64,000 bases of DNA from Candidatus Moraniibacteriota bacterium. GTDB taxonomy: Bacteria; Patescibacteriota; Minisyncoccia; Moranbacterales; GCA-2747515. The position numbers were made by a program, and so were the translations under genes. The notes under the pieces were generated by a model, which was given only the letters and a program-made list of their open reading frames with translations, had not been told where the DNA came from and did no database searches. The stretch spans positions 1,170,912 to 1,234,911 of the forward strand of contig CP175956.1 in the NCBI GenBank assembly GCA_046116545.1, in the 5' to 3' direction. Below, one piece after another: positions 47,804 to 62,170 of the stretch (the first letter of the stretch is position 1; the number at the start of each line of letters is the position of its first letter).

Positions 47804-47942
47804 TTAAATGTCTCCACCGCACACGATTTTTGCAACAAACCACGTACGCTTGGATAACGTATAAATATAGCATTTTTTACTAATTTTGTCAATGAAAAAG
47901 CCACAATAATAATTTTATATTATTGTGGCTACTTACCACTGC

Positions 47943-48701
47943 TTATTCACCTATTTTGAGTGTAATATTGGAAATAGACTTTATTTCACTACCCTTTATT
48001 GAAGCAACTAACGGACCTTGTCCATATAGCCAGGTACCCTCTTCAATTTTCTCATTTTTGCTTACATATGGCTTTTCTTCCATGAAAATTTCCCGTACGA
48101 CATCGGCATTTTGAAATAATTCATCTATCCCAAAATCGATTGCTGACATTGAATATCTGTCATTTGACTGCGCCATGTAATCTCCTGGGGCATGCATACT
48201 AAGACAAATTGATTCAGTTGCAATTACACTCATCGTATCACCATCTTGTGAATCATCGCTGTATTCCCATACAGCAGCTTCTAATTGATAAAACTTATCA
48301 TTCAGTTCTACAATATTATTTGCGAGATAGGTTATCCGATCATTAAAAATATCTTCATTTTCTTTACTAAAATATCTTCCAAGCTCCTTTGAAACTGCAA
48401 TTTGCATAGCTCTCGACATATGTCCTGCATAATCAATATTTGCAAGTTTGTCACTTAAGTCTGCTATTATTTCTTGCCTTACTGCACGTTCACTTTTTGT
48501 AACTAACAATTCTTGTTTTGCAACTAACAGTTCTTTTTGCAACATTTCAATTTGAATAGATTGTTCCAAAACAACATCCGTCTGCATATTATCTACAAAA
48601 TATGCAGACAATGGAAAAAATGTTTCAAACAAAAATGAAACTGGTGTAACCATGGCAATAAACTTTATTGACCAAAACACTAACTCAGTGATGACGCTCA
48701 T
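47943..48701 (-). CDS. Hypothetical membrane-anchored coiled-coil protein
   Basis: N-terminal TM; heptad-like LQKELLVAKQELLVTK segment. Confidence 0.4.
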   Translation of the reverse strand: MSVITELVFWSIKFIAMVTPVSFLFETFFPLSAYFVDNMQTDVVLEQSIQIEMLQKELLVAKQELLVTKSERAVRQEIIADLSDKLANIDYAGHMSRAMQIAVSKELGRYFSKENEDIFNDRITYLANNIVELNDKFYQLEAAVWEYSDDSQDGDTMSVIATESICLSMHAPGDYMAQSNDRYSMSAIDFGIDELFQNADVVREIFMEEKPYVSKNEKIEEGTWLYGQGPLVASIKGSEIKSISNITLKIGE

Positions 48702-48826
48702 GACTTCCTCCTTTTATTTTTAAAAAACAACATACATCCATCAAACTGAAAAATTATACTAACATGACTCAATAAAAAAATCAATAGAAAAAGCAGTAAC
48801 TATTTACCTTTATCTAATGAAAATAA

Positions 48827-48906
48827 CCTGTCATTCCGGAAATGTTTATTTCTTCACGAACGATTAGTGAGTGATTGGAAATAACATTATCCGGAATCTC
48901 TAGAAC
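48827..48906. repeat. Intergenic palindromic repeat, long form (MITE/REP-like), with TTCCGGAA core at both ends
   Basis: cctgtcattccggaaatgttt...aacattatccggaatctctag; the ends are inverted copies of each other; related copies at 9226, 53170, 63127 and 48937. Confidence 0.6.
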
Positions 48907-48936
48907 ACATCAAGAAAAATTCGTGTATTACAATAA

Positions 48937-48963
48937 GATTCCTGCCTGCGCAGGAATGACATT
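48937..48963. repeat. Short hairpin form of the same repeat family, in inverse orientation
   Basis: gattcctgcctgcgcaggaatgacatt; its reverse complement gtcattcctgcgcaggcaggaatc parallels the 63127 copy. Confidence 0.5.
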
Positions 48964-49074
48964 AGAAAAATCTGAATAATTACAAAAAGCACCCTCCATA
49001 AATATAAGCTACTGCATGCTTGTAACTTGTAAAAGGCATAATCCTTACTAACAATATTATTCAACTCTAAAATA

Positions 49075-49108
49075 AAAACTGTTTGCAAAATTCTTTGCAA
49101 ACAGTTTT
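49075..49108 (-). terminator. Intrinsic terminator of the 49130-49642 gene
   Basis: 13-bp perfect stem aaaactgtttgca/tgcaaacagtttt with an 8-nt loop; T-rich on the minus strand. Confidence 0.55.
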
Positions 49109-49129
49109 ATATTGTTCTTGAAAAAATAT

Positions 49130-49642
49130 TCAAAGACTAAATATACCTTTAACTATATCAGTAACGATTTTCTCTGGTTTTTGATATATCGCTAAATATA
49201 CCAGTACCAGACTTTCTCGCTCAATAGCTATTGAGTGTGTAGTATTCTGTGACTTATTTATGATATTCATCTTGAACCATTCTTTGCCTTTCTCATGAAA
49301 TACAGATAAGTTTGTAGTATACCACCTCTGTGTATTCATGGTGATGTCCATATCTTTATATTCAAACTTACCACCTTTAACAAATGCCATCCAAGAGCCA
49401 CGTATGTCTTCTCGATTGATAACATATGATTGTGTATTCGTTCCATCAGTCACAACCATATCAATGAACTCTGTCGATTCCCCACCTTTTTCTTTGAAGG
49501 AATTTATTACCCTTTGAGCTGTCCATTCTTTCCCATTAATTCTTATGCGCAAATGTTGCGCAATATCTTCTGGAGAAAGCTTACTATTTCCATTACTCAT
49601 ACAATTTACCTCCTTATAAAAAGGAAAGGGCACACCGGTCAT
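49130..49642 (-). CDS. Hypothetical protein
   Basis: 170-aa ORF with its own terminator; no recognisable motif. Confidence 0.45.
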   Translation of the reverse strand: MTGVPFPFYKEVNCMSNGNSKLSPEDIAQHLRIRINGKEWTAQRVINSFKEKGGESTEFIDMVVTDGTNTQSYVINREDIRGSWMAFVKGGKFEYKDMDITMNTQRWYTTNLSVFHEKGKEWFKMNIINKSQNTTHSIAIERESLVLVYLAIYQKPEKIVTDIVKGIFSL

Positions 49643-49673
49643 TAACCAACATGCCCCTTATAACACAATAATC

Positions 49674-50333
49674 TTATTTGTCAGGATCTGACATTGAATC
49701 CGAATCTGTTAAGTCCTCATCCTTAGATTCAACAGAAGAGACTTCATTAATCGGCTCAGACTGTTCACGTTTCGGCTCATCGACAACATCAGAGCTATCG
49801 TCATCTTCTGACTCCAACACTTCCTCATCAGCTTCTTGAAGACCATCGTCTTCTTTCTCATGATCAGACTTATCAGCAGAATGCCCCACACTAACACCAG
49901 CAGCAACCGCTGCTACTTCCGGAGATACCGAGCCTGACTTCTCCTTTTCAACTTCTGTAGAAGCATCATCTTTTTTCTTATGGTCAGACTTATCATTAGC
50001 ATGAGCAGCAGCAATACCTCCCTCAGGTTTTACTCTTGACTTAGGATTGCTTTTCTTCGCCAACTGCATTTTTTTCACAACGAAATAGAAAACTCCAAAC
50101 ATAATACCAAGCACTATGGCATCGCCATACCAAGCAGCGGGAAGACATAAGATGGCCCCCGCAGCCATAATTGGCCAACCAAAAAACATTACCTTAATAT
50201 CACTTAAGTAATCTGGGCCAACTTTGTCATTCAAAAATTTTTGTCCCCTTGGATGCCTTTTTGCAACCTCAGCAATAATACCTATGATTATACAAACAAT
50301 ACCCACTAAATTCTCTTGCCAAAATAAAGTCAT
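49674..50333 (-). CDS. Membrane protein (3 TM) with a long acidic, internally duplicated C-terminal tail
   Basis: Hydrophobic N-terminal half; the tail repeats AAHANDKSDHKKKDDAS and VGHSADKSDHEKEDDGL; D/E/S-rich. Confidence 0.45.
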   Translation of the reverse strand: MTLFWQENLVGIVCIIIGIIAEVAKRHPRGQKFLNDKVGPDYLSDIKVMFFGWPIMAAGAILCLPAAWYGDAIVLGIMFGVFYFVVKKMQLAKKSNPKSRVKPEGGIAAAHANDKSDHKKKDDASTEVEKEKSGSVSPEVAAVAAGVSVGHSADKSDHEKEDDGLQEADEEVLESEDDDSSDVVDEPKREQSEPINEVSSVESKDEDLTDSDSMSDPDK

Positions 50334-50446
50334 ACCTTCTACCTCTTCGCTAAATTTATGTTAAACAACTTTACTATACCCGCAATTACGGACTTTTAAA
50401 TCTATCACAAAATCAAAATTAAATCAAGCATTCGCGTACTTGATTT

Positions 50447-50488
50447 TAAAAATAAAAATTGCTTCGTAGAATTTATCTACGAAGCAAT
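50447..50488 (-). terminator. Intrinsic terminator of the 50512-51711 gene, with a second weaker hairpin at about 50423-50449
   Basis: 13-bp perfect stem attgcttcgtaga/tctacgaagcaat with a 5-nt loop; T-run on the minus strand. Confidence 0.55.
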
Positions 50489-50511
50489 TATACTTCCCTA
50501 CAGACTTACGA

Positions 50512-51711
50512 CTATGTCGTAACTTCTGCAGTTATTTCTTCACTCTTTTCTTCTTCATCTCCCTTAAGAATGTCGATATCCTTCTTGAACGCTATAATTA
50601 GAGATACTAAGAAAGCTACCAGAAATGGTCCCACCAACGCACCCTTGAGACCGTATGCATTCATCCCTGCAATCATGCAAAGCATCAATGCAACAGCTGA
50701 TAATGTTGCTTCCTCGCCACCTAAGACTTTGAACTTGATCCAGTTATCACATGTTGCAACAAGAACTGTTGCAACAAGTAAAACACCTGTTGCTATATAA
50801 TGACCTTGCACTGCACTAATAACAACTAACCCGATTACTACTGGGGTTGCTACAAGCGGAAGTCCACAAGCAGATGTCGCAATAGCCAGTATGGCAATAA
50901 CCAAAAGCACAGCTATGTCTACAGGCATATACATAAAACAATATATCCCCACAATAAGCGTAGCCAAACCTCCCTGTCCCAAGCCAACTGCTACCATACT
51001 TTTTACAAGACTATTCATAACCTTCTGGACATCCAGGAGGATTTGTCTCGTATCCTCTTTTCCAAAAAAGGCGATATGCGGAAGCAGCCACTCTATCATC
51101 TTTTTACCTCTCAAAAGAAAAATAATTACGGCTACTACAGTTATGCTTATATCAACAAAGATCTTCCACACTTTTGCTAAAGTACCTGTAACTGCTCCGA
51201 GAACTGATTTACTTAATTTGCCAATCATACCACCACCCTGAAGTAGGACAGTGACACTGCCAAAATTTGAATCAGCTATCTCTATAGCCTTGTCCACAAA
51301 CATTGTTGACCATTCATGTTTTTTCTTTACTTTTACAAGCAAGTCCACAGCCTCTTCCTGAAATTCCGTAACCATAGTACTTCCATCCTTCACAGCCTCA
51401 ATTCCAGTATCAATCTTGTTGATACCATATACCCCAAAGCCCACCATCACAATAAAACACATGCCAATAAATGACATTATCATTATTGCTATAGCCGTCT
51501 TTGCTCTTCCTCCCAAAAACTCACTGAGAGGCTGATATACCGTTGGATACAACGCCGATGCTAATACTGCACCAATAAAAAATTGTGATACAAATGGTGT
51601 TATCATGGGCATAGTCACCCACATCATAAAAGCAACAAAAACTGCCCCTGCTACTTTCATTACTACTACCTTGTCTTTGGCTGTGTACCTGATATTTGGT
51701 CGTGTTTTCAC
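50512..51711 (-). CDS. Polytopic membrane protein, possibly AI-2E family transporter-like
   Basis: 399 aa, about 8-9 TM with a soluble loop after TM3; C-terminal GLKGALVGPFLVAFLV region resembles the AI-2E end motif; the assignment is weak. Confidence 0.4.
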   Translation of the reverse strand: MKTRPNIRYTAKDKVVVMKVAGAVFVAFMMWVTMPMITPFVSQFFIGAVLASALYPTVYQPLSEFLGGRAKTAIAIMIMSFIGMCFIVMVGFGVYGINKIDTGIEAVKDGSTMVTEFQEEAVDLLVKVKKKHEWSTMFVDKAIEIADSNFGSVTVLLQGGGMIGKLSKSVLGAVTGTLAKVWKIFVDISITVVAVIIFLLRGKKMIEWLLPHIAFFGKEDTRQILLDVQKVMNSLVKSMVAVGLGQGGLATLIVGIYCFMYMPVDIAVLLVIAILAIATSACGLPLVATPVVIGLVVISAVQGHYIATGVLLVATVLVATCDNWIKFKVLGGEEATLSAVALMLCMIAGMNAYGLKGALVGPFLVAFLVSLIIAFKKDIDILKGDEEEKSEEITAEVTT

Positions 51712-51824
51712 TTTTTATCTCCCAAAATAAATTGATTTTAAAAAACCAACAAAGCAATTTCGTGCTTTCATCGATGTTTCTTCAGTTGATATATAAGACA
51801 TGATTGCCTTACATGATTGTATGA

Positions 51825-53000
51825 CTATACTGCATGTTCTTGAGATATTTTATCCCATTTGATCATGCCCTCCTTAAATCGTTTTGATCGAAGATACTCA
51901 ATGAACATTCCCGCTTCAATACAACGTGATTTTGGTGGATTAACTTCAAGCTTGCCACCAGCTTTGTGACCTGCTGCAATTGCATCTGCTTTATTATTTC
52001 CTGACTTGAAAAATCTCTTCAAATCATCCCAACTACATCCGTCGAAATCCTCCGGAACTTGCAAACGATATTTTGTTTGTCCATCAGCATCTATCATATC
52101 CATCATGGTATACGATGATCCTGGATCCTGTATGCACCTAGCAATTAGCTCAGGCATACTAGTTGGAACAGGCTCGATGTTTTCCCCAAGAAGTTTAACA
52201 ACAGGAGCATTTTCATGCATTACGTCAAACGCAACTACAATATGAGCCTTTGGATTTACATTTCTCATAATGATACATAATGCGATGTTATAATTATCAT
52301 CACCTGTATCAATCAAAATTCTAGCAGCATCTGCGATACGTGCCTCTTTGAGAAATTTGTCAGACTTAAATCCTGTCTTGGTGCTTTTGCCACTGACAAT
52401 TCCACTCATTGGGTTTTTGTCATACCTCTCCTTATCAAAGCATAACAATAATTGTCGTTTTTCTCTACGAGTGTCGGCCAAAATATTATCAATGATAATA
52501 TTTGTTCTATTTCGTTGAAACGAAATAATTGGTATATGATCTTTTATACTCACAATGATATCTCCATGATATATTTTGTACGAAATTTTCCAAAAATCTT
52601 TAACCAACATTGCACCATAAGCAACTAAAAAGGCCGGGTAAAAATTGAATGAAAATGCAGAAACTAGCCTACCCATTTCTGACACAGGAGCCACATCTCC
52701 AAGTCCAACTGTTGAACTCAAAGCACTGACAAAATATAAATAATTTATCCAATTAGTTATATCGTTGTCAACAGGCTCAAATGAAATAAATATTCCCCAA
52801 TTAAAAAGAAAATATGACACCCAAATTATGACGGGCCACTTTGACTTAAATAGCTCTTTTTCTATTTCTAGAAAAATAAACGCTGCAGTAGCCGACTGTG
52901 ACTCCAGTCTCCCATATACAAACCCACGTACTTTTTTTGCAATACTTAGCAAATTAGCACGTATACCTGATAATATATTTTTTGACTTATTCACATTCAA
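51825..53000 (-). CDS. Two-TM potassium-channel-like protein with a noncanonical TVGLGD pore motif and a C-terminal cytoplasmic domain
   Basis: TM1, then pore helix plus STVGLGDVAP, then TM2 (KcsA-like layout); the C-terminal ~250 aa are not clearly RCK (no GxGxxG). Confidence 0.5.
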   Translation of the reverse strand: MNVNKSKNILSGIRANLLSIAKKVRGFVYGRLESQSATAAFIFLEIEKELFKSKWPVIIWVSYFLFNWGIFISFEPVDNDITNWINYLYFVSALSSTVGLGDVAPVSEMGRLVSAFSFNFYPAFLVAYGAMLVKDFWKISYKIYHGDIIVSIKDHIPIISFQRNRTNIIIDNILADTRREKRQLLLCFDKERYDKNPMSGIVSGKSTKTGFKSDKFLKEARIADAARILIDTGDDNYNIALCIIMRNVNPKAHIVVAFDVMHENAPVVKLLGENIEPVPTSMPELIARCIQDPGSSYTMMDMIDADGQTKYRLQVPEDFDGCSWDDLKRFFKSGNNKADAIAAGHKAGGKLEVNPPKSRCIEAGMFIEYLRSKRFKEGMIKWDKISQEHAV

Positions 53001-53169
53001 TCCCCCTCCTTTTCATCACAGTTTTCTGATATATTTTGTTAAAAAAACTAAAATCTAACACAATTTACACATTATAAATTGACTCATCAGATTAGCATAA
53101 ATTACAAAAGAAATCAAGTATAGTATCTTACATCCCACCTTCAACCTTAATCACAAATAAATATAAAAG

Positions 53170-53246
53170 CCTGTCATTCCGGAAGATATTATTTGTATCA
53201 GAGCGGTTAGCGATGATAACCAAATAAATCTGTCCGGAATCTATAC
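53170..53246. repeat. Intergenic palindromic repeat, long form
   Basis: cctgtcattccggaag...tctgtccggaatctatac; same termini as 48827-48906. Confidence 0.55.
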
Positions 53247-53410
53247 TGTGACATTAAAGGTCAGCTTTCGTACAAGTGATTTTTTGATGGATGGACAGGC
53301 ACAAGGCACTGTCCCTACTAAAAATCTATTTTACGAAATGACAGAAATTCAATATTTTTGTTGATTGAAATTTGAATTAGAATTCAGGAGTAAATGATAC
53401 TATCCCTACA

Positions 53411-53452
53411 AAAAATAAAAAGCTGCAGAAACATTATATAATGTTTCTGCAG
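53411..53452 (-). terminator. Intrinsic terminator of the 53461-54447 gene
   Basis: 13-bp perfect stem ctgcagaaacatt/aatgtttctgcag with a 4-nt loop; A-run upstream on +, so a T-run on the minus strand. Confidence 0.6.
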
Positions 53453-53460
53453 TTAACTAC

Positions 53461-54447
53461 TTATTGTTCTTTTTTTGGGAGATCTAGCCTAGACTCCTCA
53501 TCAGGTTCCCAGTCTAGTTCAAAAGCATCATCAATTTCTTCTTCCTCAACTTCAAAACCAATTTCGCCTTCATCAATATCCAACAATGAAAGTTCCCGAT
53601 CATCATCAAGTTCCGAATCTCCTCCATCTTCTATATCAAATATTCCTAAATCCAAATCATCCTCTTCATCATCAAGAAAAGTAGATGATACAGACTCATC
53701 CTCAATTTCATCTTCTTGTGTATCTGTCATTACTGGTTCAGTATCCAATATTGATATAGTGCCTATCTCTGAATTCATTGCGGTTAGTTTGTCAGATAAT
53801 TCACCCAATTCTGCTGTAACAACCTGCTGTAACATGTTGATTAAACCACTGAAATGATCTACTAAATGATCATTATTTTCACCTACCTGTTGTAATAAAT
53901 TGGCAACAATAGTATCAATAGCCAGCTCTCCAGTTTGAGTGCCACTATGCTTATAAAACTTTTGCAATGATGCGTCCATGGCAGTGCTCAATCGTGTAAC
54001 CTCTCTTCCTTCGACATCACGCATTTCAGTGAGTTCTTCACGTAATTCATCACCCTCTTTACGCAATGCTACAATCATTTGTTGTGCCTCTGCCTCACCT
54101 TCCTGCAATCGTTTACGTTCTTTTTCAACTAACTCAAGAGTCTTTTTCACACCTCCCAACTCACTAACACGCTCATAGAGAGCATCAGCCTTGTCTTCTT
54201 CCTTCACTAATCGCTTATTAAATTGAAATGCAAGTCTACTAAACCCTGCTACCATGAAAGCCAGTGCTACAATACAAATTGTAGCCCCAGCATTCATGCC
54301 CATCCATGCTAACAACTCGCTTGATGAATCTGCAATATTTGTAGTTAAATAACTCCAAGATACTTGTGCTGACTCTCGTAAAGTTTCAATCATTTTTCCC
54401 ATCTCCAAGTTATAATTTTGTATTGTAAAACAACAATTAATTTGCAA
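53461..54447 (-). CDS. Single-pass membrane protein with a coiled-coil domain and a highly acidic C-terminal tail
   Basis: TM (ATICIVALAFMVAGF), a long Glu/Lys-rich helical region, and a C-terminal DDEEDDLDLGIFDIEDGGDSELDDD tail; the real start is probably an internal Met. Confidence 0.45.
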   Translation of the reverse strand: MQINCCFTIQNYNLEMGKMIETLRESAQVSWSYLTTNIADSSSELLAWMGMNAGATICIVALAFMVAGFSRLAFQFNKRLVKEEDKADALYERVSELGGVKKTLELVEKERKRLQEGEAEAQQMIVALRKEGDELREELTEMRDVEGREVTRLSTAMDASLQKFYKHSGTQTGELAIDTIVANLLQQVGENNDHLVDHFSGLINMLQQVVTAELGELSDKLTAMNSEIGTISILDTEPVMTDTQEDEIEDESVSSTFLDDEEDDLDLGIFDIEDGGDSELDDDRELSLLDIDEGEIGFEVEEEEIDDAFELDWEPDEESRLDLPKKEQ

Positions 54448-54499
54448 TCAAATAAATTTGATATATAACTATATCACTGATACTACATTTGGTCAATTA

Positions 54500-54542
54500 T
54501 AAATAAAAAGCTGCTACGATATTTTGTAATATCGTAGCAGCT
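54500..54542 (-). terminator. Intrinsic terminator of the 54563-55783 gene
   Basis: 14-bp perfect stem agctgctacgatat/atatcgtagcagct with a 6-nt loop; T-run on the minus strand. Confidence 0.6.
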
Positions 54543-54562
54543 ATACTGTACCTCACACGCAA

Positions 54563-55783
54563 TTATTTATTGCGCTGTGCTTTTTCAAAATCTCCAACAG
54601 TTTGTAAATCATCTTCATCAATAGAATCCTCTGTCATATCCACTTCAGAAAGATACACAAATGTATTCAACTTTTTAAGCATGAGCGCAGCCATCTCCAA
54701 TAAGTCAATTGGATCTGTAGAGTCATTGATATCTACAACTGGCTTTGTTGATACCATTTTTGGAATTAACTCAAGTCCTTCAACACTCTTTTCAAGTTGC
54801 TTCATCAACGCCTGTCGATCACCTGCAAGCAATCTTGTGATCAGATCCTCATCAACTGATTTATTCACAATAATTACTTTTTTCTTAATAGTGTCAAGTT
54901 GGTTACTGGATTCTGCATTCAATTCTGCAACAGTCCATGTGTGAATGCCTGAACGTTCACTCTGTATAGCAGTGAGACGCTTATCTATATCAACTTGATA
55001 TTGCTTGATAGCTTTTTCAACAAGCTTATCAAGATCAACTTCCGGTGCACTCTTAGCATCCTCAAGCTTCTTCACCAGACCGTCAGTAAGAGTTTCCAGT
55101 GACTTATTAATTGAATCACTTCCGTCTCCAAGTTGTTTCTTTACAAAATCATGCAATTCCTGCATCGGAACTTTCATCTCTGCGGCCACATTTTCAGCCA
55201 GCGCTTTACCATTATCATCAGGACCGATAGTAATCACTGCACCAATGACTTCAGCCATTTCTTTGAGATTAGTCAGGACCTCTTTGTTAAAAATTGGCAC
55301 AGAAATTGGATTTTCATCAACTCCTGATGATTGTTTCAATTCACCCACAGGACTTACCTCAAGTTCCTTGAAAAAATCAACCCCATAAAACTCACGCAAG
55401 GCTTCTAAATTACTCAACTTACGTCGACCAATTTTATCAGCTATTTCTTGCTCAAGCTTTTGCTTGTCTTGTGTCAGCTTTTTAACATCATTCTCTGACT
55501 TCTTGATGATTTTATCTAACACCTTTATTTGATCTTGACTTGCTAAGTCATATTTTTTCAATCGCGCAATTTTTTTCAATCGCTTTTTAGTGGCACGTTT
55601 CTGTGCCCAAATCACCGCACACAGTACGATAAATAGAATCCCAACTCCTCCAATTGCAATAGCAAACGGAGAATTTGTCAAAAATTCTTCCCCAAAATTT
55701 GTCATTACATTCTTAACAGACTCAATAATTTCGCCTACTTCAACTCTAATGTTGCCATCAGTTACACTTATCACACTTGCCAT
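54563..55783 (-). CDS. Single-pass membrane protein with coiled-coil domains and an acidic C-terminus (paralogous architecture to 53461-54447)
   Basis: TM (FAIAIGGVGILFIVLCAVIW), then KRATKKRLKK, then coiled-coil segments, then a C-terminal EDSIDEDD. Confidence 0.45.
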   Translation of the reverse strand: MASVISVTDGNIRVEVGEIIESVKNVMTNFGEEFLTNSPFAIAIGGVGILFIVLCAVIWAQKRATKKRLKKIARLKKYDLASQDQIKVLDKIIKKSENDVKKLTQDKQKLEQEIADKIGRRKLSNLEALREFYGVDFFKELEVSPVGELKQSSGVDENPISVPIFNKEVLTNLKEMAEVIGAVITIGPDDNGKALAENVAAEMKVPMQELHDFVKKQLGDGSDSINKSLETLTDGLVKKLEDAKSAPEVDLDKLVEKAIKQYQVDIDKRLTAIQSERSGIHTWTVAELNAESSNQLDTIKKKVIIVNKSVDEDLITRLLAGDRQALMKQLEKSVEGLELIPKMVSTKPVVDINDSTDPIDLLEMAALMLKKLNTFVYLSEVDMTEDSIDEDDLQTVGDFEKAQRNK

Positions 55784-55868
55784 AATCTTTTCCTCTCCAA
55801 AAATGAGATATTTCGTTTAGCTAATTACTTTTTACACAAATAACTAACCTATTTTATACTTCCAATTT

Positions 55869-55967
55869 CTACTCCAATTTAAAAATCCAACGCACAAAAA
55901 TACTAAATGATATAACTGCCACAACAATTGCACCCAAAAGTGCACTTGCATGTATCCAATTATCCAT
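55869..55967 (-). CDS. Unannotated 32-aa hydrophobic mini-protein (MDNWIHASALLGAIVVAVISFSIFVRWIFKLE)
   Basis: Manual translation; one TM; its start overlaps the stop of the 55960-56223 ORF by 8 nt. Confidence 0.25.
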   Translation of the reverse strand: MDNWIHASALLGAIVVAVISFSIFVRWIFKLE

Positions 55968-56223
55968 AACCTATCACCCTCCCAAATCTAAATGTGGTAC
56001 TACAGCCTCGCTTCCTTTGTAACCATAAAAAATATACAAAAACAAATAAAGCAATACACAATATCAACATAGCTCGAATAGATTCCATCACAAGGGCTGC
56101 TGTTCGATATACAGTAATACTGATTAATCTAAATGGCATCACAAGAAATATTATCCAAATAAGTTTAGACATATCACTCACCTTCTTGAAATTATTTTTC
56201 AAATTTTCTGTCTTTAGGCACAA
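55960..56223 (-). CDS. Small two-TM membrane protein (possibly starting at the internal Met, about 56175)
   Basis: 87-aa ORF; two hydrophobic helices; its 5' end overlaps the 46-aa mini-ORF. Confidence 0.35.
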   Translation of the reverse strand: MCLKTENLKNNFKKVSDMSKLIWIIFLVMPFRLISITVYRTAALVMESIRAMLILCIALFVFVYFLWLQRKRGCSTTFRFGRVIGYG

Positions 56224-56332
56224 AAATAATACAAGCTATAAAACTTGTAACAATCACTGATACAATAATAATCGTCTCAATGTTATTTGCAATAACTGGT
56301 ACTGACTGCAATAAATCCTGAATCATTATCAT
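56192..56332 (-). CDS. Unannotated 46-aa single-TM mini-protein (MIMIQDLLQSVPVIANNIETIIIVSVIVTSFIACIIFVPKDRKFEK)
   Basis: Manual translation of the minus strand; ATG at 56332; TAA stop at 56194-56192. Confidence 0.25.
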   Translation of the reverse strand: MIMIQDLLQSVPVIANNIETIIIVSVIVTSFIACIIFVPKDRKFEK

Positions 56333-56490
56333 GCTATTTTCTCCTCAATATTCAATTATTAAATTACATCTGAAAAATATACCTATACTTTTCACAATTA
56401 TATTTACAAAAAATAAATACTGTTGTAAAAACTATTGTGCTTTGAGTATTGATATCAATACTCAAAGCACGCTCCTTTAAATTGTTGAAT

Positions 56491-58263
56491 TTATAATGTC
56501 ACAACCTGATCTTCATCCATAGGCTCTGCCTTTTGGATAGTTGCCCATGGCATTTTGGATATTGCTGTCATAATGTTTCTCTGAGCATACATTCCCATGC
56601 CCATGCCTACATGTACAGCTGATCCCAAGACCTTGCCAGATGCATTGATGACGCTTTGACCTGTTGCCTGCAATGCCTGCAACTTTCCACCATCAATACT
56701 AATTTGACGTAAGCGTCTAGCCTCTTTTCTACTATCTTTATTGATAAGCATTACGAGACGATTATTGCCGATTACAAATCGACCTATCTTCCACTTACGA
56801 AACATGTACATACGATGTTTCCCACCTAGTGACATCTTGCCAAAAAATGTTTTTGCTAATATTACAGAAATGAATTCAAAGACTTTGTTCACACCAAGTT
56901 TTCTCAAACCTGCTCCAAACAATCCCATCACAGTCCTGAAACCAGCAAAAATTTTAATGAGAACGCCCTTTGGAAAAAGTGGATAAATAAAATCAGCAGA
57001 ACCACCCATCAACCAAATTGCTGTCATGCCAATAATGCACCAAAACATCTGTCTGGGAAATGATAATGATTTATAATGAGTCACTGCTCTATCTTTGTAT
57101 TTACCAAAGAATAACTTCGCCCACATAACTTTTTCATTTTTTAACGCTCTTGCTTTCTTATTCGCAAAAAATTGCGTAATAGCAAGTGCAATGCCTAACT
57201 TAATAGCACCTCTTGCGCTCACCTTTTGTGCTGCAAAGACTCCAAAATTTTTGGCCTGTGCCCATGAAAGAGTAGTTATCAAAGTAATGCCACGTCCCCA
57301 CCACAGTTTTGTAAAACTGATGATGTAACCTGTGTACAAAATTGCTTTACTCTTTATGAAAATAAGCACTTTTAATATGATACTTCTCCAAACAATGGTT
57401 ACAGCAGCAAAAAAGTGTACATCCCACACCAATTGGCAAATGAGAATAATTATACTGAGTATGATACATAACCATATTACAGGACAAATCTGTCTTTTAA
57501 CCTTTACAGTAAGCCTGCTCCATATACGCCACATTATCGTAGTTCCCATAATTGCAGCAACTTCGATAACAAACATAGCTTTGGAGATGGTCAATCTATA
57601 ACACACCCACTTCACTGCAAATGTAACAACTCCTACTTCCCCACAAAAAAATAAAATATTGCGAGCTTTCTGAGTCATTGATTCAAATACAGCATTCAAA
57701 TTATGCAATATACATAATATTGGCAATGTAATTGTCACCAAAATACCAAACGGTACAATTGATTTGCATACCAGCTTATGTACATTCACAACAGTGGCCA
57801 TAAAAATATCCTGTGCCAATTTCTGACTGAAATTCACAATGGAATGCCACAAAATTATTGCATCTTGCAGAGACCTTACATCACCCTTGTTATGTAACAA
57901 GGCCAAGGCAAATGCCCAAACAGGCACCCATCTCAATAAAACACGAATTGACTCTTTTTTTTCATCTGACAATCTCGGCCATATAAATGACCATGTGGAC
58001 CACGTCAATACTAACGTAAACCAGATTGTAGCAAATACAACGATACTACCGTGTTGCCAATGTGACCCTCCAAAGATTGCTATTGCCATCTGCAATATAA
58101 CTGCATACTCCAAGAAAAAAATAAATACACTTTTCACACGTGAATGTACTACTTGTTGCAATAAATTTCCTTGATGCAATAACATACATGGTCTCATCAA
58201 TAGCACGATAGCAAAGATGGACCACAGGTCATGCCTTGTAATACCAAGCGCTGTAATATCCAT
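56491..58263 (-). CDS. Large (590 aa) polytopic membrane protein, Trp/Lys/Cys-rich, unknown family
   Basis: At least 10 hydrophobic segments; no transporter-like G/A-rich motifs; first gene of a tightly packed four-gene minus-strand operon. Confidence 0.5.
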   Translation of the reverse strand: MDITALGITRHDLWSIFAIVLLMRPCMLLHQGNLLQQVVHSRVKSVFIFFLEYAVILQMAIAIFGGSHWQHGSIVVFATIWFTLVLTWSTWSFIWPRLSDEKKESIRVLLRWVPVWAFALALLHNKGDVRSLQDAIILWHSIVNFSQKLAQDIFMATVVNVHKLVCKSIVPFGILVTITLPILCILHNLNAVFESMTQKARNILFFCGEVGVVTFAVKWVCYRLTISKAMFVIEVAAIMGTTIMWRIWSRLTVKVKRQICPVIWLCIILSIIILICQLVWDVHFFAAVTIVWRSIILKVLIFIKSKAILYTGYIISFTKLWWGRGITLITTLSWAQAKNFGVFAAQKVSARGAIKLGIALAITQFFANKKARALKNEKVMWAKLFFGKYKDRAVTHYKSLSFPRQMFWCIIGMTAIWLMGGSADFIYPLFPKGVLIKIFAGFRTVMGLFGAGLRKLGVNKVFEFISVILAKTFFGKMSLGGKHRMYMFRKWKIGRFVIGNNRLVMLINKDSRKEARRLRQISIDGGKLQALQATGQSVINASGKVLGSAVHVGMGMGMYAQRNIMTAISKMPWATIQKAEPMDEDQVVTL

Positions 58264-58278
58264 CTAAATTGCCTCCAA

Positions 58279-58569
58279 TTACTTTTTCATTTCAATCACA
58301 CGATTACTGTACGGCGCATCTGATTTATTTTTTTCGATTATTGCCTGATTAAGCAATATCGCAATAATAATTACCCATGCCAAAATGCCAAGGATAAAAT
58401 TACGCGTCGCTCTAACAGCACATTCACGAATAAACTTAATTGGTTTCTCTTTGATTTCCTCAATCGTGTACATAGACATCTCCTCAAAAAAAGAAAAGTG
58501 ACCACCACGACGATATCGTAGTGGCCACAAGAATATTTCATCTGTCACATTAATTATTATCCACTTCAT
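58279..58569 (-). CDS. Small single-TM protein
   Basis: 96 aa; 20-nt overlap with the upstream gene. Confidence 0.35.
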   Translation of the reverse strand: MKWIIINVTDEIFLWPLRYRRGGHFSFFEEMSMYTIEEIKEKPIKFIRECAVRATRNFILGILAWVIIIAILLNQAIIEKNKSDAPYSNRVIEMKK

Positions 58570-59074
58570 CAGTAGACATTTGTCCAGATAATCTTCTAAT
58601 CAAGATTCCCGTAGCCATCCCAACAGCAAACAGAATCGAAATGATAAATGTAGTATACCATTGCGCCTCACTTGCCTTTGTTAAATCAAGGTAACCATGA
58701 TCAATTAAGAACCACGTGGCCAAACCTGAAATGCCAAACATTGCAATAAGCCCAACTGTACCAAGTGCTTTCTTTGCCAGAAAGGCAAAAATTCCCCACA
58801 CAATAACAGCAGCTCCCACAGCAAGTGCTTTGGAACTCATAGCTGCATCAGATGTTTGTACCCATTTATATAAGCAGTACTGTGTGGGATTATATGTAGC
58901 CCACACAACAACCAAAGCATAAACCAACCTGGTATATAGAACTTCTACAAAATTTTGATTCTTGAATGATTTGAAAAAACTCGTAAATGCGAATTTCAAC
59001 ATTCCCTTTCCAGCAGCCTTTCCATGTTTAGTCGCAACAGCTTTTGCATTTTCCATCTTTTGCCTTACCTCCAT
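58550..59074 (-). CDS. Four-TM membrane protein, unknown family
   Basis: 174 aa; contiguous with the 59075-59371 gene. Confidence 0.45.
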   Translation of the reverse strand: MEVRQKMENAKAVATKHGKAAGKGMLKFAFTSFFKSFKNQNFVEVLYTRLVYALVVVWATYNPTQYCLYKWVQTSDAAMSSKALAVGAAVIVWGIFAFLAKKALGTVGLIAMFGISGLATWFLIDHGYLDLTKASEAQWYTTFIISILFAVGMATGILIRRLSGQMSTDEVDNN

Positions 59075-59371
59075 CTAAATTGATTTGAAAATATCGAGAG
59101 CATCATCATAGAGCTCATCAGATATTTGAAAACATTTTTCACCTGTATCAACAACATATGTAGTAGTTGTATCTGTCACATCAACAACAGCTACTGCCAT
59201 TGAACATGTGGTGCACATAGCTATATTAGCCTGTACCTCTGGTGGCATTTTTTTGCAAAATGCATGCCATCCATATGAAGTACTCACTATTATCACAGTT
59301 GGAATAAAAAATAAATACAATATTTTTTCCTTCCATGTAAATCTCCAGGCTATACTGAACCAATCCAACAT
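59075..59371 (-). CDS. Small N-terminally anchored protein with Cys-rich and Thr-rich segment
   Basis: 98 aa; TM followed by CKK...CTTCS...TDTTTTYVVDTG. Confidence 0.35.
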   Translation of the reverse strand: MLDWFSIAWRFTWKEKILYLFFIPTVIIVSTSYGWHAFCKKMPPEVQANIAMCTTCSMAVAVVDVTDTTTTYVVDTGEKCFQISDELYDDALDIFKSI

Positions 59372-59562
59372 AATTTCTCCTCCTGAATTATAAATTCAAC
59401 AATTGTTAAAATACTTTTTTGAAACATATTTATGTCACAAAATTTTATATACTATCTACAAATAATCTACAAAATTCTGTACATAACGCCTTAAAACTTC
59501 CAAAATGTTAATAAAATGACACGACCACTTATTATACATAATATTTTAAATTTGTCAATAAA

Positions 59563-59594
59563 AATTCCCACTGATGAATTCATCAGTGGGAATT
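59563..59594. terminator. Perfect 32-bp palindrome (aattcccactgatgaattcatcagtgggaatt) acting as a terminator for the 59641-60564 gene
   Basis: Read directly; it contains GAATTC at its centre; A-run upstream on +, so a T-run on the minus strand. Confidence 0.5.
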
Positions 59595-59640
59595 AGATCT
59601 ATCTGGATTTCCAGACTATATTTACTATATTGCTCAATGA

Positions 59641-60564
59641 TTAAATTTGAGCTTTTAATTCTTCAAACTTTACAAGTCCCTGACTCTTCCAGCCCTTAAT
59701 CTTGAGCCATGCTTTCTGAGTCCATGTGGGCTGTGGTGAAAAGTCTTCCGAAGACATTCCTTTTAAGATATCTTTGGTAGCATCAACCATTTCAGCAACA
59801 TCTACTGAATACTGAGCTGATGAATCAAACACAGCAACTACAGGCATCATAACAGTTGATACTTCTCCGAATCCAGGAATAGTAACCTTTCCAGCTTTGA
59901 GACCCTCTTTAATCAAAGAGCGCGACAATACACCGGTAACCTTCAGTTTTTCCTTGTCAATTGCCTGCATCAGCTTGGAATACGGATTAGGATATCGCGA
60001 TACAAACCCAACCATATTAGGATTGGACTTCAGAGCGTTTAAAAAATCAGCTTCTGATGTAAAGCTTTGAATGCGTGATTTATCCAATCCATGCGAAATG
60101 GCAAAAGAGGCTTCTCCACTATCCATCCCACCCAGGACTGCCAATCTCAGTCGCTTCATGTTCAAGAGTGTTTCCCATGTGCGAAGTTTTGACTTGGATC
60201 CAAGAAATGTAATAGTTTTTTCCTGTCCGACAAGCAACATAGCCTCTGAAAATGGTGCTATCATCACATCATTCATGCCTTCTGCTTCGGCAACTTTTTG
60301 CATTGCCCAGCCAAAATGAAGATTTCCAGCTTTTACATTATCACAATTAAATTTACTTCCACCTGGGGAACCCACTTCAATTGGGATCAGTTGTTCTTCA
60401 GCCTTCTGCTTGAGAATATTGGCGGTTCGATAAAACTCACCAGTTTCTCCACCTGAACCAAAACAAACAACTCCATCAGGACAAGCTGCCATAGCCATTG
60501 AAGCCGCTGTAAATACAAACGCCACTGCTGTGACCGCCACTGTCTTTAATAAGTCTCTTTTCAT
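59641..60564 (-). CDS. Periplasmic solute-binding protein, TAXI-family TRAP receptor-like
   Basis: Lipoprotein-like signal (AMAAC); CFGSGGETGEFY resembles the TAXI GGTGGTYY motif; strong GGAGG Shine-Dalgarno 9 nt upstream. Confidence 0.4.
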   Translation of the reverse strand: MKRDLLKTVAVTAVAFVFTAASMAMAACPDGVVCFGSGGETGEFYRTANILKQKAEEQLIPIEVGSPGGSKFNCDNVKAGNLHFGWAMQKVAEAEGMNDVMIAPFSEAMLLVGQEKTITFLGSKSKLRTWETLLNMKRLRLAVLGGMDSGEASFAISHGLDKSRIQSFTSEADFLNALKSNPNMVGFVSRYPNPYSKLMQAIDKEKLKVTGVLSRSLIKEGLKAGKVTIPGFGEVSTVMMPVVAVFDSSAQYSVDVAEMVDATKDILKGMSSEDFSPQPTWTQKAWLKIKGWKSQGLVKFEELKAQI

Positions 60565-60827
60565 CTTTTCAAACCTCCAGTTTGAGAATAATGTTTATTG
60601 ACACAATGCCAACATAAAAAATTGTAAAATCTACTTTATCGAATTATGAAATTTCTTCACATCGAAATATTATCCTAGTATACTTTACTTTTCTTGTCAA
60701 GTATTTTTTATAGATTTTCTTATATAAATTAATTTTTATTTTTCATCCTACTGCAATAAAAAAAGCAAGAAGAAAAATTTCTCCTTGCCTCAATATTGTG
60801 CGAATTATTCGCTTTTCATTATCTTTT

Positions 60828-61544
60828 TTAAACAGGTGTAGCTGAGATAACCTTTGGATATACTCCGAAAGCTCTAAGCCATCTTATCCCATAAACTCTA
60901 ATTTTCAATCTTCTGTCTTGGGTAAATTCATCCCAAAGCAATGTACGCTCAAATCTTAAAGCAAAAACTTCAACTTCCCGCAACTTCACTGTAAATTTTT
61001 TGCCATCGTCAGGTTTCACGGTTACGTTAAACTTAGACCCCGTATCTTCTGGCTTACCCACCGTCACATCATATTCATAATAAAATACATGTATAGCAAG
61101 TGGTTGCCATAATACAGCAGCAGCAAGAAGTACTATTAAAACCGTTTTAGTTTTCTTGTATTTCTGCAGTCTGTCTATTGATCCATACAACATAACAGCA
61201 ACTGTTAATACTGCTACAGGAACAGTCCAAGCTGGTTCAAAATAAAACATCATCAGTAAAAAACCCATGAGTACTACAGTAGCTGTAGTCTGAAATCTAT
61301 ATTCAGCTAAACTCTCAATTGCGTAAGGCAATATCACAGCTGCCAATACAATCGTAACTAAAGATGCTATGATTGGATACATCATTGCTACAGCAATCAA
61401 TGCACCTACAATGGCAAGTATTACTATCCATTGCTTTTTACTAAGCGATTTCACTGAATCCCATAGTTCTCCACCCTTTACTTGTGCCGAACTAGCAAAA
61501 GTAACTGCCCTAGCCTTACTTCCTTCAAACCAACTATTTTGCAT
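60828..61544 (-). CDS. Polytopic membrane protein, unknown
   Basis: 238 aa; about 4-5 TM, then a soluble C-terminal domain. Confidence 0.45.
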   Translation of the reverse strand: MQNSWFEGSKARAVTFASSAQVKGGELWDSVKSLSKKQWIVILAIVGALIAVAMMYPIIASLVTIVLAAVILPYAIESLAEYRFQTTATVVLMGFLLMMFYFEPAWTVPVAVLTVAVMLYGSIDRLQKYKKTKTVLIVLLAAAVLWQPLAIHVFYYEYDVTVGKPEDTGSKFNVTVKPDDGKKFTVKLREVEVFALRFERTLLWDEFTQDRRLKIRVYGIRWLRAFGVYPKVISATPV

Positions 61545-61870
61545 AGCGTCTCCTTTCTCCCTTTTATATTTCTTATGAGTACTACCCTACATTAACTATA
61601 TGTTAAATGACTTTGCAACATCAATCTATCGCAATAACAAATCGACAGATAACCATATCATGTAATACCCACTTAGTCAATATACTTTATCACCAACTGA
61701 AAAACTTTAGGAATTTAATAAGTAAAAAAATCTACTAGACAATTCTTGCATCTCCTTTTACAAAATGATTGAGAATTCTTTACTTTACATACCATGGATT
61801 AAAAAAATTAATCACTCTTTTAAAGAGTAATTAATTAAAAAAATGATAATACTACATTTTTTTGATATAA

Positions 61871-62170
61871 CTATGCTATAAATATATCCTGAACAATTCC
61901 TTCTTTTTCTTCAAAATCAACACCCCGCGTATTAAGTGCCTCAATCATCTTATCACCAAATTTACCTGCGATAATTTTATCAACTGACTTATCTGCTAGC
62001 ATTTTAGCAACTCCCAATCCTGCACCTCCCCCTCCTGTGCTAAATGGATTTTTTATTGTTTCAAGTAAAGTTCCATTTTCATCAAAAATTAAAAAGAATG
62101 GTGCACGTCCTGCTTGTGAAGATACTGTGGAATCTATATTTTTATCCATTGATCCAACTGCAATTTTCAT
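61871..62170 (-). CDS. NifB/NifX-family (dinitrogenase FeMo-cofactor-binding-like, MTH1175-like) small protein
   Basis: 99 aa; MKIAV.S...LD..V....GRAP.F.IFD.......E..KN pattern and a central GGGAG loop. Confidence 0.55.
   Translation of the reverse strand: MKIAVGSMDKNIDSTVSSQAGRAPFFLIFDENGTLLETIKNPFSTGGGGAGLGVAKMLADKSVDKIIAGKFGDKMIEALNTRGVDFEEKEGIVQDIFIA

Follow-up and report, generated by a model that had tools for sequence, protein, structure and literature searches.

A stretch of about 14 kb in the chromosome (about 1.3 Mb) of a Candidatus Moraniibacteriota (CPR) bacterium looks foreign to its host. We propose with moderate confidence, as the best explanation of the data, that it is an island, gained horizontally or by recombination, that carries a membrane transport and ion-homeostasis cassette. 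The stretch lies in a window of 64,000 nt, the whole of the DNA analysed, to which all coordinates refer. A preliminary description had read a block at 49130-61544 as an envelope module, acquired horizontally or specific to the lineage, and as a candidate for a system not yet described. The acquired or lineage-specific module and the candidate system gained support, from a distinct composition, from an empty site in a relative (locus L010) and from a core gene order that recurs in at least eight other lineages. Comparison with L010 placed the true limits slightly wider, at 47,876-61,882. An envelope role is conjectural, since the block encodes proteins of the cytoplasmic membrane and a single binding protein that resembles a lipoprotein. 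The features, with TM for transmembrane, are as follows.

47876..61882, no strand: island (window-specific segment), without counterpart at the syntenic site of L010
60828..61544, minus: 238-aa membrane protein, 4-5 predicted TM segments and a C-terminal soluble part, orphan; terminator 60762-60791
59641..60564, minus: TAXI-family-like solute-binding protein, signal peptide, AMAAC lipobox-like Cys; monocistronic, terminator 59563-59594
59075..59371, minus: 98-aa single-TM protein, operon gene 1; orthologs in L006, L015 and L016
58550..59074, minus: DUF6524 four-TM membrane protein, acidic C-terminal tail, 174 aa; PF20134, E=6e-27
58279..58569, minus: 96-aa protein, single TM segment; 20-nt overlap with the DUF6524 gene
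56491..58263, minus: 590-aa polytopic membrane protein of an undescribed family; terminator 56437-56470
55960..56332, minus: two small TM proteins, 46 aa and 70 aa; gene calls of the JGI contig (L001), coordinates converted
54563..55783, minus: 406-aa protein, N-terminal TM anchor and cytoplasmic coiled coil; terminator 54509-54542
53461..54447, minus: TM-anchored coiled-coil protein, 328 aa (313 aa in the JGI call); terminator 53423-53452
53129..53384, minus: structured non-coding segment, 256 nt, holding a ~75-nt long-hairpin repeat (53170-53247)
51825..53000, minus: MthK-like K+ channel, two-TM pore, TVGLGD filter, RCK/TrkA_N domain
50512..51711, minus: divergent AI-2E-family transporter; PF01594, E=1.4e-16; terminator 50457-50489
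49674..50333, minus: membrane protein of 219 aa, accessory orphan; acidic tail built of repeats (internal 77-nt repeat)
49130..49642, minus: 170-aa soluble orphan; bidirectional terminator 49075-49108
48826..48905, minus: second copy of the ~75-nt hairpin repeat; short related palindrome at 48938-48962
47943..48701, minus: 252-aa TM-anchored acidic coiled-coil protein, last island gene; terminator 47899-47930

The sequence had been said to turn GC-richer from about 49 kb, and this was confirmed: the GC content was 0.365 at 49130-61544 versus 0.325 at 1-49129 and 0.317 at 61545-64000. The GC3 of all 12 block genes fell between 0.261 and 0.352 (length-weighted mean 0.315), versus 0.145-0.282 (length-weighted mean 0.187) for the 32 other genes of the window (Mann-Whitney p = 3.4e-7). 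Far from being indistinguishable from the rest, the block is clearly distinct in GC3 and codon usage, which are unlike those of the host, as expected of a genomic island. The difference was largely synonymous. Its main component was a shift from A-ending to G-ending codons, with AAG at 0.43 in the block versus 0.20 in the rest and CAG at 0.40 versus 0.20; C was commoner at four-fold sites, and two-fold pyrimidine codons were nearly unchanged. The codon string quoted earlier, gcagcagcaaccgctgc, was found at 49897, but with one mismatch. Native membrane proteins of the window lack the shift (GC3 of 0.18 for MurJ and 0.205 for the native AI-2E protein). The 252-aa gene is borderline, with a GC3 of 0.253, and lies inside the segment absent from L010.

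L010, a related MAG (Moraniibacteriota GMC4_bin_51), has both island flanks contiguous: the HAD-ArsP-NifX-like genes on one side and, on the other, SdrD_B, RNase P RNA and a sugar transferase. By blastn, L010 620-2714 corresponds to window 64000-61883 and L010 5105-7671 to window 47875-45340, and the flank proteins are 68-93% identical (tblastn). The segment is therefore absent from the orthologous site of a relative, the comparison being with a single genus-level relative whose flanks are ~77-82% identical at the nucleotide level (about 80%). The site is filled there by a different, 2.1-kb insert that encodes a 609-aa SdrD_B surface protein, and loss of the block in L010 is formally possible. 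The block also appears in independent assemblies, namely a 90-kb contig and four other samples from JGI and a 1.29-Mb contig from NCBI. The EPTP gene is variable too, being missing in L010, yet it has a native composition.

The earlier view that the block ORFs have no recognisable role proved too strong, as four genes match AI-2E, a K+ channel with RCK, DUF6524 and a TAXI-like binding protein. For the last of these, the single sequence matched TIGR02122 (TRAP_TAXI, E=1.3e-6) and NMT1_3 (E=3e-4), both under the curated cut-offs (27.5 bits versus 84 and 20.7 bits versus 27, respectively). A profile of seven orthologs, however, placed the protein in the TAXI family, matching TAXI proteins of the PDB with E=3.5e-13 over the N-terminal lobe only. 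The protein is 72% identical to its L022 ortholog and only 26% identical to that of L006.

Next to the binding-protein gene lies an operon of four tightly packed genes, the translation of which is probably coupled. Neighbouring genes in the window either overlap or stand 0-15 nt apart, and L006, L015 and L018 show much the same spacing. A perfect TTGACA-16-TATAAT promoter precedes the 98-aa gene (59558-59531), which abuts the DUF6524 gene with zero gap. The DUF6524 protein gave a full-length match to PF20134 (94.4 bits versus a 27-bit cut-off). It has orthologs in L006, L009 and L018, and six other loci have in the equivalent position a possibly homologous family whose profile is weakly similar (hhalign E=0.0017, probability 15%). 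We found no mention of DUF6524 in the literature searched. The 96-aa protein belongs to a small-TM orthogroup with members in L006, L009, L016 and L022. The last gene encodes the 590-aa protein, the C-terminal half of which is strongly basic (net charge +47). This protein founds an undescribed family, absent from Pfam: twelve representatives were recovered with E<1e-3 among 1.84e9 proteins, and their alignment shows conserved motifs. Neither the single sequence nor the family profile matched Pfam or the PDB. The AF2 model of the 590-aa protein is all-helical and of low confidence, the AF2 models being poor (pLDDT 57), and Foldseek gave no matches.

The K+ channel combines a TVGYGD-type filter with an RCK/TrkA_N domain, as MthK-like channels do. 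Ion_trans_2 (E=1e-7) and TrkA_N (E=1.4e-5) both scored over the Pfam cut-offs, and MthK in the PDB was matched across residues 83-367 (E=2e-4). The orthologous channels carry TVGYGD, TLGYGD or TVGFGD where the window has TVGLGD. The channel gene is probably co-transcribed with that of the AI-2E transporter, and the two overlap in L015 and L019. The transporter matched PF01594 with 61 bits versus a 34.3-bit cut-off, its residues 25-374 corresponding to positions 6-325 of the 327 in the model. Its closest non-self relatives are 90% identical and the next 27%, and the closest AI-2E protein from outside the module is 27% identical. Since the window encodes a canonical, compositionally native AI-2E paralog at 6662-7687, the block copy is an extra one.

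Around these genes lie accessory ones. The 406-aa protein has an ortholog in L015 (E=5e-13), and its C-terminus should be cytoplasmic, given a K/R-rich stretch after the TM segment. In L017 and L018, the gene downstream of the 590-family gene encodes an analogous acidic coiled-coil protein with a TM anchor. The 46- and 70-aa proteins are weakly similar to small TM ORFs upstream of the L014 K channel. For five of about 16 genes, those for the 238-, 328-, 219-, 170- and 252-aa proteins, the other module loci contain no homolog. Among them, the 328-aa protein, the tail of which is extremely acidic (net charge -53), had no homolog outside the host genome among the loci examined; the 238-aa protein had no match in Pfam, NCBIfam, PHROG, PADLOC or the PDB, and the 170-aa protein none in any of the libraries or the PDB.

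The block was also described as rich in strong stem terminators and flanked by palindromic repeats; the first description stood and the second did not. Each of the five hairpins cited was confirmed on the coding strand, here the minus strand (49075-49108, 50457-50489, 53423-53452, 54509-54542 and 59563-59594), and three more were found at 47899-47930, 56437-56470 and 60762-60791. These eight predicted Rho-independent terminators, each a hairpin with a T run, sit after ORF ends on the coding strand. Between 46 and 64 kb there are 30 terminator-like sites versus 8.1 +/- 3.3 in shuffles, and perfect stems of at least 10 bp with a T run number six in 47.9-59.6 kb versus two in the first 47 kb. One more perfect stem with a T run, at 52481, lies within the K-channel ORF on the opposite strand. 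The pattern suggests that the block genes may be transcribed independently and strongly. As to the repeats, the copies placed at 48.8 and 53.2 kb are real, exact TTCCGGAA occurring at 48834 and 53177 only, but the 63.1-kb site is a different short palindrome, GTCATTCCCGCGTAGGCGGGAATC. The TTCCGGAA repeats do not flank the block, because copies sit within it and a degenerate copy lies far outside, at 9224-9300; they are a dispersed hairpin family and not block-specific. The structured segment that holds one copy (53129..53384) is 81.6% identical to L010 4819-5076 and has a folding z-score of -4.75.

Orthogroups of the module genes were set by phmmer and jackhmmer. Instead of being scattered singly in other genomes, homologs of the core genes keep one shared order across at least eight further uncultured lineages, at 20-35% identity in the 590 family. 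The check for conserved synteny that had been proposed for this block was positive. The shared order is TAXI-type binding protein, ~90-aa TM protein, DUF6524(-like) protein, ~60-aa TM protein and 590-family protein, with a divergent AI-2E transporter last; between the latter two there is often an acidic coiled-coil anchor and often an MthK-like K+ channel. This order is kept around every 590-family member recovered (L006/L014, L015, L016, L017, L018, L019/L020, L021 and L022/L023), and the AI-2E gene was found in each of the nine module loci with a contig long enough to include its position. Its recurrence in these lineages indicates that the cassette is a real module. Compared with L022, the window is a mosaic, with 72% identity in the binding protein and 67% in the RCK part, and 23% in the 590-family protein and 30% in the AI-2E protein. 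By these identities the parts of the cassette have different histories, and values of 72% and 23% within one cassette require exchange between lineages.

The above findings suggest that the cassette is probably a binding-protein-linked membrane transport and ion-homeostasis complex. Its conserved core comprises an extracytoplasmic TAXI-type solute-binding (lipo)protein; the four-gene operon, whose products are a TM protein of ~90 aa, the four-TM DUF6524 protein, a further TM protein of ~60-96 aa and a polytopic member of the 590 family that is very basic in its cytoplasmic half; the divergent AI-2E-family transporter; and, in most lineages, an MthK-like RCK-gated K+ channel with a membrane-anchored acidic cytoplasmic coiled-coil protein. 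The four operon proteins may form one heteromeric inner-membrane complex that, with the binding protein, would take up or sense a small solute, perhaps of the carboxylate or amino-acid type. Its layout would resemble that of TRAP P-Q-M with unrelated membrane subunits, and the K+ channel and AI-2E carrier could handle the accompanying cation and charge balance. A bolder reading, to which we give rather little weight, is that the operon represents a new class of membrane machinery partnering TAXI proteins, a transporter or receptor unrelated to ABC, TRAP (DctQM) and TTT systems, limited to a few CPR lineages, exchanged among them and coupled to the AI-2E carrier and the K+ channel.

The cassette could instead be a sensor or signalling device, in which the TAXI protein senses a ligand and the membrane complex relays this to a Ser/Thr kinase-PP2C pair and the gated K+ channel. 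An RCK-gated channel is indeed a signalling-type effector, and in L015, L016 and L022 the binding-protein gene has PP2C and kinase-like genes upstream of it, with SLOG/LSDAT as well in L022. We consider this unlikely, as the window, L019 and L021 contain no kinase or PP2C gene, the AI-2E carrier accompanies the 590 family more constantly than any other partner, and neither the 590 family nor DUF6524 has a recognisable signalling domain. That there is no functional unit at all, the block being a mere collection of unrelated and rapidly evolving membrane ORFs of a kind common in CPR genomes, would agree with the orphan genes, the lack of functional annotation and the poor AF2 models. It is nevertheless most improbable, given that an order of five to eight genes is conserved over at least nine lineages, even where protein identity falls to 20-30%, and that the gene overlaps fit translational coupling.

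As to its origin, we suggest that the segment at 47.9-61.9 kb entered the chromosome by horizontal transfer or recombination and forms a flexible genomic island, whose cargo would be the conserved, undescribed membrane cassette together with lineage-specific accessory genes. The source may have been other low-GC, probably CPR, lineages, this direction of transfer being presumed. The mobility signatures of an island were not among its traits, as searches for tRNA, integrase or transposase domains and flanking direct repeats found none. This would agree with a native, lineage-specific block that the relative lost or replaced by a surface-protein gene, its GC3, promoters and terminators reflecting selection, for example for high or insulated expression. 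Strong single-gene promoters and terminators are present, and module genes exceed their own flanks in GC3 by ~0.05-0.1 in L019 and L021 as well, so the bias could be gene-intrinsic. However, an A-to-G shift with C at four-fold sites and nearly flat two-fold pyrimidines is not typical of translational selection, ribosomal protein S20 in L019 does not have the GC3 of the module, and the inter-lineage exchange required by the identities above speaks against a native origin. Because the EPTP gene is variable with native composition, variability alone does not yield the GC3 shift. We regard a native block as improbable.

A decayed prophage, integrative element or plasmid insertion that carries membrane-protein genes by chance would also account for the foreign composition and the empty site. 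The gene for RNase P RNA, a structured-RNA locus, lies 0.8 kb beyond the island border, and an IS30-type HTH_38 gene adjoins the truncated module in L009. This origin is very unlikely, though. No capsid, terminase, relaxase or integrase gene was found in the block; PHROGs gave weak coiled-coil noise only; IMG/VR held no relatives for five block queries; the phage tblastn search was negative; and the 590 family was unmatched in plasmid and phage collections. There are thus neither phage genes nor viral-contig relatives, and the module of L019 and L021 has housekeeping genes around it. Nor does the block resemble anti-phage defence, PADLOC yielding marginal coiled-coil matches only (E of 2e-4 or weaker).

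The genomes of CPR bacteria are tiny and the organisms rely on hosts, yet much of their membrane proteome is unannotated. Here a string of hypothetical proteins has become testable, as a recurrent cassette with clear borders, a family absent from Pfam and a context for DUF6524. Should the cassette prove to serve transport or ion homeostasis, it would reveal how CPR organisms acquire solutes, and such capacities would move between CPR lineages as islands. If it does not, the locus still offers a clean case, in a CPR genome, of a replacement island set apart by its composition.

With known genomic and flexible replacement islands the block shares atypical composition, a relative without it, a replaced surface gene and mosaic histories. 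It differs from typical ones in lacking an integrase, a tRNA target and direct repeats, in its CPR host with a ~1.3-Mb genome, and in its cargo, a conserved cassette where known islands carry fitness, virulence or defence genes.

The likeness to TAXI-TRAP lies in the placing of a binding protein beside a small four-TM and a large polytopic protein, the same P/small/large layout. TAXI-TRAP has a fused DctQ-DctM protein, whereas DUF6524 and the 590 family resemble neither part in Pfam or the PDB. DctQ/DctM-type membrane components were matched by no block protein, none of the 12 members of the 590 family and not by the family profile against the PDB, so the TRAP analogy is one of layout alone, and the block offers a TAXI binding protein without a canonical TRAP partner beside its gene. 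Unlike TAXI-TRAP, the cassette has two extra single-TM subunits and always an AI-2E carrier, and the long basic cytoplasmic half of the 590-family protein is unlike an elevator-type carrier. In a distant genome of 60% GC, the DUF6524 member is a solitary 131-aa gene beside secG, pyrG and purA, unlike the block protein with its 45-aa N-terminal extension and its place within a four-gene operon. The block channel shares the two-TM pore, TVG[YLF]GD filter and RCK domain of MthK-type channels, and the carrier passes the Pfam gathering score of AI-2E (PerM/TqsA/YdiK) transporters. A pairing of the two was not found in the literature searched. Both proteins are highly divergent from MthK and the known AI-2E proteins and are embedded in a cassette, and, unlike known MthK and AI-2E systems, they are translationally coupled in several lineages.

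The locus is a replacement island with a distinct base composition. Its cargo is a membrane cassette that has not been described before but recurs in other lineages, made up of a binding-protein gene, a four-gene operon, a K+ channel and an AI-2E gene. Using the flanking HAD protein as a query against species-representative genomes, we retrieved four Moraniibacteriota contigs. One of these, L010 (isolate GMC4_bin_51), shows the site without the cassette: its genes run HAD, ArsP, ArsP, NifX-like, a 609-aa SdrD_B-domain protein, a 256-nt segment, a 178-aa SdrD_B protein, RNase P RNA, a sugar transferase and glycosyltransferases. Nucleotide homology between the window and L010 ends at 61883 and restarts at 47875, which puts the window-specific segment at 47,876-61,882 (14.0 kb); in its place L010 carries a 2.1-kb surface-protein gene. 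The preliminary description had set the block at 49130-61544, and by comparison with L010 this extent was too narrow. Flank proteins share 68-93% identity between the two, which makes L010 a genus-level relative and not a sister strain. On contig L013 (CAZHQB010000017.1), recorded as 'uncultured Micavibrio sp.', there is a HAD gene whose product shares 83% identity with its Moraniibacteriota counterpart; L013 is probably a mis-binned CPR contig.

GC content was 0.365 in 49130-61544 versus 0.325 before and 0.317 after, a difference that is unconvincing on total GC alone because other stretches of the window also reach 0.35-0.37. GC3, on the other hand, ranged from 0.261 to 0.352 in the 12 block genes versus 0.145-0.282 in the 32 remaining genes of the window, with length-weighted means of 0.315 and 0.187 (Mann-Whitney p = 3.4e-7). 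The compositional signal is thus at synonymous sites. A-ending codons were depleted in the block and G-ending codons enriched (AAG 0.43 vs 0.20, CAG 0.40 vs 0.20, GAG 0.37 vs 0.24); C was commoner at four-fold sites, and two-fold pyrimidine codons were nearly unchanged. GC3 and codon usage together bear out the earlier impression of a compositionally distinct block. Native membrane-protein genes, namely MurJ, the ArsP halves and the AI-2E gene at 6662-7687, have ordinary GC3, so the amino-acid composition of membrane proteins is not the cause. The gene at 6662-7687 (minus strand) encodes a second, canonical AI-2E transporter (E=4e-57) of native composition (GC3 0.205), which makes the block AI-2E an additional, highly divergent paralog.

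Judged from its protein matches, the window is chromosomal DNA of a CPR/Patescibacteria bacterium. The 590-aa, DUF6524 and AI-2E proteins match, with 100% identity over 96-100% of their length, proteins of an NCBI Candidatus Moraniibacteriota bacterium MAG that includes a 1.29-Mb contig. The DUF6524 protein (174 aa) is also encoded, without a single difference, on JGI metagenome contig Ga0675942_0001429 (90 kb) and in four other samples from JGI. The upstream neighbour of the block is a cell-envelope polysaccharide cluster (glycosyltransferases, MurJ, sulfatase, sugar transferase), and no tRNA genes were found within the window. Other features of the setting are as follows.

9567-18872, minus strand: giant ORF of 3101 aa, GC3 0.145
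23756-28213, minus strand: giant ORF of 1485 aa, GC3 0.162
28293-33999, minus strand, within the glycosyltransferase cluster: GTP_EFTU/eEF1A_C-like protein beside a 267-aa gene, two phosphodiesterase-family proteins and a sulfatase
42688-45255, minus strand: EPTP-repeat gene of 855 aa with seven EPTP repeats (Pfam PF03736, E=1.3e-96)
46795-47143: bacterial RNase P RNA gene

Both giant ORFs have high GC2 and probably encode large surface proteins, and the genes at 28293-33999 may form a putative CysN/CysD-like pathway for a sulfated or phosphorylated envelope polymer. The EPTP domain is known chiefly from animal proteins such as LGI1. This gene is also missing from L010, yet has native GC3 (0.179), showing that presence/absence variation alone does not bring a compositional signal.

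The palindromic repeats had been proposed to flank the block. Within the window, exact TTCCGGAA was found at 48834 and 53177 only, both copies forming the stem of a long hairpin of about 75 nt that reads AGATTCCGGA...TCCGGAATGACAGG on the minus strand and has conserved ends. Each copy precedes the start of a minus-strand gene by 100-170 nt; the locations are as follows.

48826-48905: hairpin repeat
53170-53247: hairpin repeat, inside 53129-53384
9224-9300: degenerate copy, far outside the block

The 256-nt segment 53129-53384, which holds the 53-kb copy, shares 81.6% identity with intergenic L010 sequence (4819-5076) and folds with z = -4.75 relative to shuffled sequence. Possible identities of the hairpin repeat are a MITE, an insulator/terminator and a regulatory site. 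The 63.1-kb element is a different one. It belongs with the short perfect palindromes at 48938-48962 and 63128-63151, which have only the GTCATTCC/GGAATC ends in common and take the form GTCATTCC-stem-loop-stem-GGAATC (e.g. GTCATTCCCGCGTAGGCGGGAATC); they may be similar to dRS3/REP-type repeats known from other bacteria. Copies occur both within the block and away from it: the repeats form an intergenic family that is dispersed and gives no indication of where the island begins or ends. A role of the TTCCGGAA repeats as att sites was rejected on the same grounds.

Searches of Pfam, NCBIfam and PDB matched four genes to families: AI-2E, an MthK-like K+ channel (TVGLGD filter and RCK), DUF6524 and a TAXI-like binding protein. 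NCBIfam gave no additional family for the block proteins, and searching the 170-aa, 238-aa and AI-2E proteins against PDB sequences yielded nothing informative. The 590-aa polytopic membrane protein (56491-58263, minus strand) had no Pfam match when each family member was scanned and no PDB match when the family profile was compared with PDB sequences; an exhaustive HMMER search recovered 12 family sequences with E<1e-3 among 1.84 billion representatives. Two scans of a metagenome-contig collection, which does not seem to cover these samples, gave no match to 590-family alignments. AlphaFold2 models of this protein (12-sequence alignment; pLDDT 56.8, pTM 0.27) and of DUF6524 (7 sequences; pLDDT 56.7) were too poor to interpret, and Foldseek found no PDB match below E=6 for the low-confidence 590-aa model. 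Literature searches on DUF6524, PF20134 and combinations of the components returned nothing relevant. For the cassette and the 590-aa family there is neither a Pfam model nor a solved structure, and the literature searched did not mention them. Five window genes (238, 328, 219, 170 and 252 aa), three of which encode TM-anchored, very acidic proteins, have no counterpart in other module loci and look like lineage-specific accessories.

Neighbourhoods were compared on the contigs of 8 of the 12 590-family representatives and of P0002, P0005 and P0011, with neighbouring gene products grouped by phmmer and jackhmmer. The recurring order is binding protein, a TM protein of about 90 aa, DUF6524 or a positional equivalent, a TM protein of about 60 aa and the 590 family, followed by AI-2E; between the last two, an acidic TM-anchored coiled coil and the K+ channel are often present. 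The 590 family occurs in all module loci, AI-2E in all nine whose contig extends that far, the binding protein in all seven with upstream coverage, and the K+ channel in six lineages. Identity to the window 590-aa protein is 82% in the SRR28925091 relative and 23-33% in the others, so gene order has been kept over long divergence. The operon genes adjoin or overlap in the window, and the K+-channel and AI-2E genes overlap in loci L015 and L019. Housekeeping genes, among them those for RuvA, S20, a Mur ligase and UvrA, surround the cassette in L019 and L021.

Several loci carry further genes. A PP2C phosphatase and a kinase-like protein of about 575 aa lie directly upstream of the cassette in L015 (2552-5353), L016 (3-734) and L022 (2306-6655), the last also with two SLOG/LSDAT_prok proteins upstream; none of these genes was found within the window. 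In L014 (SRR28925091, the closest cassette-bearing relative), the genes after AI-2E (3629-6830) are unlike those of the window: their products are a three-TM protein of 445 aa, a LemA-like protein of 173 aa, two members of the DsrC family and a protein of 134 aa that L015 and L022 also have. The K+ channel of L022 (12293-13239) is split into a pore ORF of 127 aa and an RCK ORF of 176 aa, representing either a pseudogene or a two-part channel.

The five terminators cited in the preliminary description were all found on the coding (minus) strand, along with three further ones. If only perfect stems of 10 bp or more with a T run behind them are counted, there are six in 47.9-59.6 kb and two in the first 47 kb; one more, at 52481, lies within the K+-channel ORF on the opposite strand. 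A perfect TTGACA-16-TATAAT promoter (59558-59531) precedes the 98/DUF6524/96/590 operon (genes named by product length in aa). Nine transcription units are predicted: 238; the binding-protein gene; the 98/DUF6524/96/590 operon; the small TM genes; 406; 328; K+ channel with AI-2E; 219 with 170; and 252. A 14-pair hairpin with a T run inside the operon (58498-58528, minus strand), where the DUF6524 and 96-aa genes overlap, may act as an internal attenuator or be coincidental. Rfam, run over the block at a permissive threshold, gave a chance-level Qrr match and no other non-coding RNA.

CPR genomes commonly contain membrane genes that lack annotation. The suggestion that this block is an acquired or lineage-specific module stands, given its distinct composition, its absence from L010 and the recurrence of its gene order in other lineages. 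Between the window and L022, identity is 72% for the binding protein and 67% for the RCK half of the channel, versus 23% for the 590-family protein and 30% for AI-2E. The pattern is opposite with L006/L014 (binding protein 26%, others 82-91%), and the parts of the cassette therefore differ in their history, which speaks for exchange between lineages. With GC3 of 0.37-0.57, the versions in L022 and L015 are richer in GC, a pattern compatible with amelioration after import from a donor of higher GC. Module-gene GC3 also exceeds that of the flanks in L019 and L021, a rise not shared by ribosomal protein S20 in L019; this fits repeated transfer, but may also reflect an intrinsic bias of the module genes. 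As to the vehicle, neither an integrase nor flanking direct repeats were found at the block, and PHROGs and PADLOC gave no phage or defence signal for its proteins. IMG/VR scans with the 590-aa, 406-aa, K+-channel, AI-2E and DUF6524 queries were all negative, as was tblastn of the 590-aa protein against plasmid and phage collections. A magnetosome-like or gas-vesicle-like organelle cluster was rejected, the marker families being absent.

The tightness of the four-gene operon suggests that its products would form one heteromeric inner-membrane complex. The N-terminal half of the 590-aa protein is hydrophobic and its C-terminal half very basic (net charge +47). K/R clusters follow the TM segments of the 406-aa and 328-aa proteins, so that their acidic coiled coils would be cytoplasmic and could dock on this basic half. 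The binding protein carries a signal peptide with a lipobox-like Cys. For the function, our best guess is that a solute is taken up or sensed with the help of the binding protein, in coupling with K+/cation fluxes via the channel and the AI-2E carrier. The main functional rival is a signalling role, in favour of which three lineages have genes for PP2C and a kinase upstream. The layout of the cassette, with a binding protein, a small four-TM protein and a large polytopic protein, mimics the P-Q-M arrangement of TRAP transporters; however, its proteins have no similarity to DctQ or DctM in Pfam or in the comparison of the 590-family profile with PDB.
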